Positions 1 to 38,334 of a DNA stretch of 64,000 nucleotides are shown in pieces. The translations under genes and the position numbers were made by a program. Under the pieces are notes generated by a model, which was given only the letters and a program-made list of their open reading frames with translations, ran no database searches and was not told the DNA's origin. Numbering within the stretch: the first letter of the stretch is position 1; every line of letters starts with the position of its first letter. Origin of the DNA: Chrysomallon squamiferum (Eukaryota > Animalia > Mollusca); contig CM022671.1 in assembly GCA_012295275.1 (NCBI GenBank), positions 6,510,001-6,574,000 on the forward strand. The letters run 5' to 3'.

Positions 1-173
1 ATAAATGAAGAGAGATAACCAGAGTGACTCTGGGGTGAAACTGTTTTTGGAAAAGCACAACCTGTTCTAAAAAAAATTCATCAACTTCATCATCATCATG
101 ATCATTTTTGCATTGGTGTATCAATTCTGATAAAAGTATCTAAATAAAGGTAATAGTTTGATATTTTAATTAC

Positions 174-2061
174 CTGAAACTGGTTGAAGAACTGCTTGTA
201 TCCACCACACAGAAGATAGATCTCAGGAAAGAAAAGTTTCGGGTACACGTCACTGTTCAGTTTACGATCCTCGTTTCTCAGATAGCGTAATCTAAATAAA
301 TATAAAACAAATATAAAACAAACTGAAGTAGAAAAAAAAAAAAATAAATAAAAAATAAAATATAGAGCTTTTTTAAATAAAGAAACCTAAATAAAAACAC
401 AATAAACTTGTGCATAATTATAAAAACAATATAATTTTGAAATATAAATTAGGTACGATAACAATAGAAAAATTACCAAAGTTTAATCAATAAAATGTTG
501 TCTTTCCTTTTACTCAGCGGTATATGCCAATTTGTTTTATTAAACGTTTTCAATACAAACTGCAACAACAGATTAGAAACACGACTTACAGTTTAGGAGC
601 TCGTTCTGAAGAGAATTCACAGTGGAAGATCAAAATGTGTTTCTCACACTGAGTCGACTGTGTTGAGAGAAATGTTTGTACATCTTTCTGTGTGTACAAG
701 TTGATAGCTCCCTGAAATTTACAAATATTTTTATTAATACATTTCATTCTTTGTTCAATTAATGATTGACATGGAAATTAAAATAGCTTATATCACAGAT
801 AAAAAAATTAACTGAATCGTTAAAGAGAGAGAGAGAGAGAGAGAGAGAGAGAGAGAGAGAGAGAGAGAGAGAGAGAGAGAGAGAGAGAGAGAGAGAGAGA
901 GAGAGAGAGAGAGAGAGAGAGAGAGAGAGAGAGAGAGAGAGAGAGAGAATTATACTTTTAAAAATGTACACACCTTAATATGGCCTCCTTCAAACTCGTA
1001 CGGATATCTGCAGTCGACAATTTGAAAACTAGAAATTTCATCCTGGTAGACTCCATCAATTAACTCTGTCACGGTTGTCGGACTGATAGACATCAGGTCT
1101 GGTTTATCTCCACAAACAGTTGGTAAACAATGATTCTGAAAAACAAATTAAAAATTATTTTACGCGGATAAAACAATAACAGCAAAAATAATATTTAATA
1201 AAACTAATATTAGTGTCACTGTTATAGTTTAAGGAATTCGACAATGAAAAAGATAAAAATATTACTATTAATATTACTACCATTGTGCTTATTGTCATCA
1301 AATGTGCTTATTATACAAGACAACTTTTAAGAACGTATTATTTAATCTTTCTATGAAAATATTTTAATTGCTATGGAGTTCGATCAGTCACTTTTGTGAA
1401 AAGAAAACAACAATTACCTCAGACCCGTCTCCTGTCAAATGACCTTCACCTTCCATTTTCTGACTTATATCAATTGATACGTCATCATCACTGGCTGATT
1501 CTCCAAGGCGAAAATGTTTTGGAAAGACGTCAACATCAACATCGTCATCATCTCTCAGTCTCTTTCCAGAAAACAGACTTCTTCTAGTATTATTGTTGTT
1601 GTTGTAGGATTTTTTAGGTGACGGAGTGAAACACTGAAAAATAGAAAATAAATTGTGAAAGAAAGAGAAACAGAGATATTACGTTAAAATCACTTATTGT
1701 ATTTCACATGCATTAAAGTAAATCAAACAACATGTTTGCACATATAAATGTATAGTATGTAAGTACATAACAGAATCAATAAACAAGTAGTTTATGTTCA
1801 GTTAATTGTAATAAAACTTAGCTCTCTTTATAAAAAGAAAAATTACGTTTTCAGAGAGTTAACATAATATTCAAATTAAAATATTTTTAATAAAATGAAA
1901 GTACAGCTGACCTGGTTTGTCGGTGAACCGTATCCACTATCTCGGGAATCCTCATCAACCCACTGAAACGTTCTGCTGAAGAAGACGTCAACAAAGTCGT
2001 CGTCACGTGTTTTGGAAAGAGGAGAAACATCGTCGTCAAAGCACAGATTTCTGGACACCAT
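174..2061 (-). CDS. cdc25: Cdc25/string-like phosphatase, copy A (exons 1-5 in window; exon 6 lies beyond the left edge)
   Basis: GT-AG exons 2061-1912, 1633-1418, 1135-974, 711-590, 291-174 splice in frame. They give IVDCRYPYEFEGGHIKGAINLYT, LIFHCEFSSERAPKL (HCX5R active site) and [31 protein letters not shown], hallmark Cdc25 catalytic-domain motifs. Confidence 0.93.
824..948. repeat. (GA)n microsatellite in intron 3 of copy A
   Basis: About 62 GA units; paralogous tracts at ~11204-11300 (C) and ~35991-36065 (H), short or absent in other copies. Confidence 0.97.
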
Positions 2062-2131
2062 GTTTATTTTCTGAGAGAATTTGCAGGGTGGACAAACAGT
2101 AAGAATGATGTAAAATGGCTCACAACTCCAC

Positions 2132-2155
2132 TATATATAGTGAAGAAGTCACGTG
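2132..2155 (-). promoter_or_regulatory. Core promoter of copy A (E-box plus TATA)
   Basis: CACGTG 2150-2155 and TATATATA 2132-2139, about 70 nt upstream of the ATG; identical in all 5'-complete copies. Confidence 0.6.
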
Positions 2156-36500: not shown

Positions 36501-37687
36501 AATCATTGTTTACCAACTGTTTGTGGAGATAAACCAGACCTGATGTCTGTCAGTCCGACAACCGTGACAGAGTTAATTGATGGAGTCTATCGGAATGAAA
36601 TTTCTTGTTTTCACATTGTCGACTGCAGATATCCGTACGAGTTTGAAGGAGGCCATATTAAGGTGTTAATATTTTTAATATTTGTATCTGTGGTATAAGG
36701 TGTTTTAATTTGTATGCCAATCATTAATTGAAGAAAAAATTATATAAAATGTATTAATAAAAATATTTGTAAATTTCAGGGAGCTATCAACTTGTACACA
36801 AAAAAAGATGTACAAACATTTCTCTCAACACAGTCGACTCAGTGTGAGAAGCACATTTTGATCTTCCACTGTGAATTCTCTTCAGAGCGAGCTCCTAAAC
36901 TGTAAGTCGTGTTTCTAATCTGTTTTAGCAGTTTGCACACAGAACATTTAATCAATATATTGATAGATACCGCAGAGTAAAATAATTCTCAACATTTTAT
37001 TGATGTAAACATTGGTGATTTTCATTTTTCTGTGGCGCCTAATTTCAAAATTTATTTATTTATTATTATTATTTAAACAAGCTCTATATTTTTTATTGTA
37101 TTGTATTTTATTTTCTATTCCAGTTGAAGACATTTGTTTTCTATTTATTTAGATTACGCTATTTGAGAAACGAGGATCGTAAACTGAACAGTGACGTGTA
37201 CCCGAAACTTTTCTTTCCTGAGATCTATCTTCTGTGTGGTGGATACAAGCAGTTCTTCAACGAGTTTCAGGTAATTAAAATATCAAACTTTTACCTTTAT
37301 TTAGATACTTTTATCAGAATTGATACACCAATGCAAAAATAATCATGATGATGATGAAGTTGATGAACATTTTTTAGAACAGTGTTTGCTTTTCCAAAAA
37401 CAGTTTCACCCCACTGTCATTCTGCTTATCTCCCTTCATTTATATAAACAAGCGAATTACTGCTGCTACCATAGTGACAACTCGTTTTTTATTTTAATTT
37501 AATATAATATACCAGTATTCTAACATGTGTTATAAATATTTATTTTATATTTACAGAATCACTGTTCACCTGTCGACTATGTACCTATGCTTGACAAGGA
37601 ACACGGTGAAGACTACGTCACTTCCGGTCTCGTGCTGGGCAGAGAAGACGACGTTTGCTACCACTTCAGCAGATGTCTTTATTCTGA
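36501..37687 (+). pseudogene. cdc25: Cdc25-like copy I (exons 3-6, exon 6 disrupted)
   Basis: Exons 36501-36662, 36780-36901, 37153-37270 are open. Exon 6 from 37557 has a -1 deletion (gaagactac vs gaagatctac), a 15-nt deletion between tgc repeats removing KSWTA, and further deletions. Exons 1-2 are absent. Confidence 0.88.
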
Positions 37688-37729
37688 GATGTTGATGTCG
37701 ACGGAAATTGTTCTGATTTTTTATACTCT

Positions 37730-37875
37730 TGTTATCTGACATTTTTTCTATAAAACACTGTTGTGTCGGCGGATGTTATCTGACAGTTCTTATATAAAAT
37801 ATTGTTGTGTCGGAGGATGTTATCTGACAATTCTTATGTACAATATTGTTATGTCGGAGCCTGTTATCTGGCAGA
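37730..37875 (+). repeat. 44-bp hairpin minisatellite, copy I (3 units)
   Basis: TGTCGG..TCTGACA units. Confidence 0.85.
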
Positions 37876-38334
37876 TATTTTATTTATATAATCGAGTGAT
37901 GTTTATTAATAAATATACAAAATATACAAATCTATTTGTGTTATTTGTCTTTCTGAAAGTTTCGTTTAAATTGTTTGTTATATGAAAAATATTCAGCGTA
38001 TTCTTTTTCGTGCTACATTATTTTTTTACTGCAATTTTATAAATCAATCAAACTAATAATTAAATCAAATAATATAAAACATTAAGAAATCCATACTTAG
38101 ATAATGCCTTAATTCTGTTGTCAATATAATATTTAAAAACCCACGTATCCTTTTAAATGTACAAGAGAAATATACAAAATATGCTTTGTATACTTTACAT
38201 TTATTGTCGAACTACCTTTCAGAATTAATGATAAAACAGAAATTGTTATGACGCACAAAGATTGGTATTTATTTACTTTTTTGTTTTCTTTTAATTTAGT
38301 AATTATTTAATTACAAATTTCTCGGTGGTTACTT

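Follow-up and report, generated by a model that had tools for sequence, protein, structure and literature searches.

Introduction

Cdc25, the phosphatase that triggers mitosis, is regarded as the product of a few-copy, tightly dosed gene. Among the closest described systems is the stringlike gene of the limpet Patella vulgata. Work by van der Kooij et al. (1996, 1998) reportedly found several near-identical copies in this one limpet; the genes are said to have four exons, to fall into a few genomic clone groups, with no mollusc-wide scope, and to be expressed zygotically, not maternally. We analysed a 64-kb stretch of DNA from the mollusc Chrysomallon squamiferum (contig CM022671.1, positions 6,510,001 to 6,574,000; hereafter the window), of which the left part carries an array of Cdc25-derived loci with a six-exon unit gene. 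We consider it about an even chance (probability roughly 0.5) that this array is a homogenised cluster of short Cdc25 genes in which selection maintains multiple copies so that the mitotic trigger is supplied briefly and at high dose, most likely for early embryonic divisions.

The window protein shares with human CDC25A, CDC25B and CDC25C and with Drosophila String and Twine the rhodanese-fold domain with the motifs DCRYPYE and HCEFSSER, the basic docking patch and the C-terminal R-x-K-S-W tail. Its gene belongs to a homogenised cluster, in contrast to the few old paralogs of canonical Cdc25. It is the same kind of short, multi-copy, near-identical gastropod Cdc25 as Patella stringlike; the matching Patella vulgata deposit CAA62007.1 carries a DSG motif. 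With histone, ribosomal DNA (rDNA) and ampliconic arrays the cluster has in common uniformity within species, divergence between species, mosaic copies, decay at the edge and individual-specific variants. It differs from these arrays in encoding a dose-sensitive regulatory enzyme with introns rather than a bulk structural product, and also in its small size, its partial inversion and the predominance of broken copies in this assembly. Neither the enzyme nor this mode of array evolution is new; no description of Cdc25 arrays in molluscs, or of a mollusc-wide pattern, was found in the open-access literature searched, and subscription papers could hold one.

Nine Cdc25-derived loci in the window

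Loci were mapped by BLAST of the 64-kb window against itself, first as a whole and also exon by exon. Nine Cdc25-derived loci (C1 to C9) were found within 1-37.9 kb. Exon 4 was matched at all nine loci, exons 3 and 5 at eight each, exon 6 at seven, and exons 1 and 2 at six each. With E-values of 1e-17 to 1e-124, the exon matches lie far outside chance, and the nine loci are real. The unit gene has six exons and extends over 2.3 kb from ATG to stop codon. The loci and the interruptions of the array are as follows (positions in the window).

174..2552, minus strand: C1, promoter and exons 1-5, ATG at 2061
5454..8089, minus strand: C2, six exons, ATG at 7707; +2 frameshift in exon 1, frame ending after 76 amino acids (aa)
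9599..12399, plus strand: C3, intact Cdc25 of 307 aa (BLAST, gene model, promoter scan, PDB matches)
10090-10239, 10518-10733, 11016-11177, 11413-11534, 11830-11947, 12244-12399, plus strand: exons of C3
13020..15765, plus strand: C4, recent duplicate of C3; exons open, intron-3 donor GT changed to AT
17479..17897, plus strand: copy of the promoter, assigned to C5 and ending abruptly at its TATA box
21027..21226, no strand: assembly gap of 200 N, which may conceal further copies
21227..23437, plus strand: C5, last 30 nt of exon 1 and exons 2-6; -1 frameshift in exon 2
26156..28872, plus strand: C6, intact Cdc25 of 304 aa, ATG at 26646
32483..33460, plus strand: C7, 5'-truncated remnant with exons 4-6
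35838..36268, plus strand: C8, fragment with exons 3-4 and a 1-nt insertion, behind a TG-rich satellite
36501..37687, plus strand: C9, remnant with exons 3-6, the most diverged of all; exon 6 carries deletions

According to the gene models, two of the nine loci, C3 and C6, are complete and intact. C1 has an open frame through exon 5, and its exon 6 lies beyond the left edge of the window, giving an intact total of two certain and three possible. The first-pass annotation had described an array of at least nine Cdc25 genes, spanning a gap and running off the left edge. The nine loci, the gap (200 N) and the continuation past the left edge were all confirmed; working genes number only two or three. 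The array is less clean than first described, with most copies broken, and wider in scope.

C6 shows an in-frame 9-nt deletion in exon 2 and 12 substitutions in exon 6, and its conserved C-terminal KSW is changed to KSS. C4 is 98.6% identical to C3 in the self-BLAST, with the duplication junction at 12935/6; both alternative splicings that we tried truncate its protein, the frame ending at 203 or 219 aa. The exon-1 insertion of C2 is absent from the dominant contigs of four DNA runs where these cover the site. The promoter and the body of C5 may belong to different copies because the 200-N gap separates them. C7-C9 are all 5'-truncated and adjoin the gene for eIF4H.

The orientation changes from minus (C1 and C2) to plus (C3-C9), and the array is thus not simply head-to-tail. 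Spacings between successive exons 5 are 5732, 5807 (across the inversion), 3367, 7670 (across a retroelement and the gap), 5428, 4602 and 4256 bp. In a dosage array of the histone type, most copies would be intact, head-to-tail and expressed together in a pulse; here two or three of nine are intact and two orientations occur. Long TG-rich satellites are located at the break points of the truncated C7 and C8 (34761-35833, 30844-31190).

Identity of the encoded protein

Exons 3, 4 and 5 were each searched singly in the PDB. For each of them, all 12 matches were chains of human Cdc25A, Cdc25B or Cdc25C, with best E-values of 3.5e-13 (Cdc25B) for exon 3, 3.6e-6 for exon 4 and 1.3e-7 for exon 5; the identification as Cdc25 made at first pass is thereby borne out. 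The HCX5R active-site loop, HCEFSSER, is present in exon 4 of eight of the nine loci (all except the C8 fragment) and aligns with CDC25A and CDC25C. The CH2A motif DCRYPYE is kept. Exon 3 alone matched PF00581 with an E-value of 0.0026, below the gathering score as a fragment, and the ortholog P0155 matched the same family at 7.5e-14. In an alignment with Cdc25B, exon 5 retains two Arg and a Tyr after the active site, which we take to be CDK-cyclin docking residues. The catalytic core is under purifying selection: the ratio of nonsynonymous to synonymous changes per site (pN/pS) was 0.13 among C1-C7 (3/318 vs 6/84, p 0.003), and constraint was also seen among the three open copies (p 0.019).

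Compared to canonical Cdc25, the protein has only about 120 residues before the catalytic domain. In Pfam scans, PF06617, the long N-terminal regulatory region, had no match in exons 1-2 or in five short mollusc proteins, whereas it was present in the 511-aa Cdc25 of Capitella. This region is dispensable for Cdc25 catalysis. The short N-terminus contains the motifs DSGYGS and RRSLF (RxLF-like), which by their consensus we take to be a predicted beta-TrCP degron and a predicted cyclin-binding motif, respectively. The DSG motif is common to the window, Gigantopelta, Haliotis, Patella and Lottia proteins. In a check for long Cdc25 among eight long or unnamed proteins, the six named ones were a cephalopod protein of 466 aa, a freshwater mussel protein of 410 aa and four from non-molluscs, with no long canonical Cdc25 of a snail among these six.

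Cdc25 clusters in other molluscs

A protein search covering 1.84 billion representatives found the closest protein in the peltospirid snail Gigantopelta aegis (78% identity over exon 3, 72% over exon 1); an exon-3 word search found only 2 proteins and missed this 78% ortholog. The orthologous Gigantopelta cluster is listed with four models of near-consecutive accessions (XP_041349138, -142, -143 and -144) on one contig, full-length models being mixed with short or damaged ones, and two further Cdc25 genes lie on another contig. In the database records, Gigantopelta eIF4H lies on a contig equal in length to that of the Cdc25 cluster, apparently the same one. In P0004, one of the two full-length models of the Gigantopelta array, the active-site loop is disrupted; this array therefore also seems to be a mix of intact and damaged copies.

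Ten protein clusters of relatives, formed at 90% identity and chosen mostly for size, were examined. The cluster of Haliotis asinina has 18 members, of which 15 are listed (XP_067656492-513, one contig), and that of Lottia has 11 (ESO86532-539 and ESO96642-644). Among bivalves, Dreissena has 7 members, Mya 5 and Mercenaria 6, and two mixed-species clusters of Mytilus have 11 and 15. The cluster of Patella vulgata has 7 members: six RefSeq models that share one contig, together with the 250-aa deposit CAA62007.1. Patella vulgata Cdc25 is only 52% identical to the window catalytic domain. The lead to Patella given at first pass is thus supported by the deposit, which falls in one 90% cluster with the genomic models; the paper itself was not found in the open-access literature. 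With Gigantopelta, Haliotis, Patella, Lottia, Dreissena, Mya and Mercenaria, at least seven mollusc genera besides that of the window have near-identical multi-copy Cdc25 clusters.

Trees were built from 180 of 182 labelled catalytic domains (two short rows were dropped) and, separately, from 62 rows with IQ-TREE. In both trees, the copies of each species formed a shallow clade on a long stem. The window and Gigantopelta arrays were sister clades (SH-like approximate likelihood ratio test, SH-aLRT, 99), their copies grouping by species and not by position, and the Patella and Lottia arrays were also sisters. Identity was 98% and 97% within the window and Gigantopelta arrays and 71% between them; the corresponding values were 98, 98 and 71 for Patella and Lottia, and 94, 93 and 72 for Mya and Mercenaria. 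Copies are more alike within species (93-98%) than between species that are both multi-copy (71-72%), as in concerted evolution, with the within-species values inflated by the way in which clusters were selected. Because of this difference between sister lineages, the copies are young, but the multi-copy state is likely old and homogenised separately in each lineage; it likely predates the split from Gigantopelta. The description of the array as young holds for its copies and not for the array as a whole, since the sister genus and many other molluscs carry clusters of their own.

Two models from other molluscs look like fused annotations of tandem copies: P0003 of Solemya velum contains three Cdc25 stretches, and P0319 of Dreissena (689 aa) is more than twice as long as its cluster mates. 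A third candidate for a fused array, P0005, with 11 matched stretches, was rejected as an unrelated repetitive protein.

Probable exchange among copies

Divergence among the copies was 0.3-4.7% in exons and 1.2-16.3% in introns. Introns and promoters had been called near-identical at first pass; for introns this holds among C1, C3 and C4 (1.2-1.8%) and not array-wide, and promoters are present at six loci only. Synonymous divergence was below intron divergence in all six older pairs tested, of 28 pairs (p<0.05, the pairs being non-independent). The difference in older pairs was two- to six-fold, as in C1-C5 (0.019 vs 0.121).

Identical runs exceeded the shuffle expectation in 11 of the 15 pairs among C1-C6 (p<=0.002). 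C5 compared with C3 is a mosaic, with 62 of 282 sites differing in intron 2 and 3 of 295 in intron 4, and relationships between copies switch from segment to segment. This mosaic pattern fits gene conversion together with unequal exchange. The active turnover proposed at first pass is upheld by the mosaic segments, the over-long identical runs and the run-specific dominant variants described below.

Unit variants in other individuals

The C4 stretch was present in seven of eight DNA runs checked, from three studies. Unit variants were compared in four runs (X1, X2, X6 and X7) over 12800-18300, and the dominant variant differed between them. By depth, a deletion at 13481 was found in 1628/1628 in X6 and 594/648 in X7, and in 0/66 in X1 and 0/678 in X2; T>A at 15321 was found in 59/59 in X1, 920/920 in X6 and 537/820 in X7, and in 0/820 in X2. 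Such run-specific dominant variants are as expected of array-wide homogenisation. Dominant contigs carry an intact exon 1 where the records cover it, and several C3/C4-specific variants are missing from the dominant contigs of all four runs.

The depth of main contigs was about 10 times that of the rarest-variant contigs (X2, 474-759 vs 40-64; X6, 627-1849 vs 44-101; X7, 258-682 vs 25-62; X1, 43-66 vs 7-12). This ratio, an uncalibrated depth and not a copy count, hints at about ten copies of the main unit type; the 5' end of the retroelement (17898-21026) had a similar depth.

Promoter and 3' repeat

Upstream of the C3 ATG, a TATA box lies at -78 and an E-box (CACGTG) at -94. The arrangement is nearly identical in the six copies with promoters, in agreement with the TATA promoter noted at first pass. 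The promoter scan found no cell cycle genes homology region (CHR), CCAAT, E2F or cAMP response element (CRE) motif in the 490 bp upstream of the C3 ATG.

Every copy with exon 6 is followed by 3-6 units of a 44-bp repeat.

12440..12717, plus strand: 44-bp repeat of C3, about 6 units, between the stop codon and the first AATAAA (12750)
5133-5411, 15806-16083, 23479-23714, 28914-29149, 33502-33733, 37730-37874: equivalents at other copies; remnants at 38390 and 38431

Because it lies between the C3 stop codon and the first AATAAA, the repeat is probably in the 3' untranslated region (UTR). Each unit could fold into a hairpin with a stem of 6-7 bp and a loop of 8 nt, in which one pair alternates between G-U, A-U and G-C. 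The predicted folding energy was -91 kcal/mol in sense and -56 kcal/mol in antisense orientation (z -2.1, 100 shuffles), and Rfam had 0 matches in the 64-kb window. The repeat could be an element for RNA localisation or translation, or a mere minisatellite.

Explanations for the array

Under the selected-dose reading, unequal crossing-over and gene conversion would likely keep the cluster uniform, with exchange between copies making new units and overwriting old ones, while edge copies would decay (C7-C9, beside eIF4H) or take a retroelement hit (C5). The shared TATA/E-box promoter would switch the intact copies on together. The 2.3-kb genes would give an enzyme of about 305 aa, predicted to remove the inhibitory T14/Y15 phosphates from CDK1, and the predicted degron DSGYGS would allow fast clearance of the protein. 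Compact TATA-driven genes and a short degron-bearing enzyme could together activate CDK1 in a sharp pulse, with the early embryo as the most likely setting. Published support is indirect: in embryos of Drosophila and ascidians, the timing of divisions is set by Cdc25 transcription (PMC10978805), and genes activated in the zygote are short as a rule (bioRxiv 10.64898/2026.04.16.718233). PMC7290932 gives general background only, and Cdc25 is not mentioned in an oyster embryo study or its two supplements (PMC12551290). We infer that the cluster has likely been multi-copy for a long time, under selection for dose.

Several points weigh against this reading. Six of the nine loci (C2, C4, C5, C7, C8 and C9) are damaged, and the N-terminal part shows no constraint among copies (pN/pS 1.3; 12 changes, few sites). 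Some of the signal ascribed to conversion could come from faster or uneven mutation of AT-rich introns. In the relatives, uniformity within species is partly by construction because clusters were picked for many members at 90% identity, and tandem order was read from accession numbers and contig records, not from DNA. Approximately unbiased (AU) tests of a single clade for the gastropod arrays gave p 0.49 and 0.58, with no discrimination between one and several origins. The Patella vulgata cluster lies on a different contig from eIF4H. The genes retain five introns and have no histone-type 3' ends by Rfam match. A cdc25 transcript of the annelid Platynereis is maternal and cleared early (PMC4974748).

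The broken loci, the absence of constraint outside the catalytic core and the many satellites within units would all be expected of neutral birth-and-death at a locus made prone to duplication by satellites, inversions and retroelements, where one or two working copies are enough, extras drift and conversion alone keeps exons alike. The C3/C4-specific variants that the dominant contigs of the four runs lack point the same way, and in Gigantopelta the essential function could be served by the two Cdc25 genes outside the cluster contig. Against it stand the recurrence of near-identical clusters in the other genera, the presence of arrays in both of two sister lineages and the intact exon 1 in dominant contigs of other individuals; we regard neutral drift as rather unlikely. 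Less probable again is selection for germline dose, with a twine-like Cdc25 serving meiotic entry in mass production of sperm or eggs, as in ampliconic testis genes, and the 3' hairpin repeats acting in translational control. Concerted evolution is typical of ampliconic germline genes, and the hairpin repeats in the likely 3' UTR are strand-biased. TATA promoters, however, are more typical of sharply induced genes, and Patella stringlike is reportedly zygotic and embryonic, without a maternal store. In favour, CDC25 transcripts fall after boule knock-down in males of the snail Pomacea (PMC13072017), in a study whose passages on them draw no distinction among Cdc25 paralogs. An assembly artefact, in which haplotypes of one or two genes, or wrongly joined reads, would have been strung into an array, is very improbable. 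The 200-N gap inside the array, the near-identity of C3 and C4, lesions that may be consensus errors and the uncalibrated read depth would suit such an artefact, but introns are up to 16% apart, truncations differ and both orientations occur; moreover, many alternative unit forms appear in independent runs, and relatives have clusters too.

The selected-dose reading can be extended tentatively, and with clearly less confidence, to the phylum scale: snails and bivalves would carry short, degron-bearing, concertedly evolving Cdc25 arrays of about 4 to 20 copies per genome, and the number of copies would set the size of a zygotic pulse of Cdc25 by which spiral cleavage and larval divisions are timed. 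If the recurrence of homogenised clusters in gastropods and bivalves is true, a regulatory enzyme would, unusually, evolve like histone and rDNA arrays, and there would be a concrete handle on the timing of the stereotyped divisions of mollusc embryos. Pipelines that depend on unique mapping tend to miss such near-identical Cdc25 genes.

Retroelement and flanking genes

17898..21026, plus strand: degraded, GC-richer retroelement without long terminal repeats (non-LTR), 3.1 kb, inserted in the TATA box of the promoter copy and ending at the gap
44267..49168, minus strand: eIF4H gene, flanking synteny marker, start codon placed by eye
57063-61064, minus strand: exons of a putative gene labelled TLDc at first pass

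The retroelement was recognised by zinc-knuckle-like and endonuclease-like motifs in pieces of open reading frames (ORFs); a Pfam scan of the ORF pieces gave no matching family. In all four DNA runs, contigs of its 5' end run into a flank absent from the window; the element is therefore also present elsewhere in the genome.

The eIF4H of the window is 85% identical to that of Gigantopelta. The TLDc label of the other neighbour was left unconfirmed, as two of its exons had no match in a Pfam scan. Further right of the array, a 22-bp minisatellite occupies 55957-56552.

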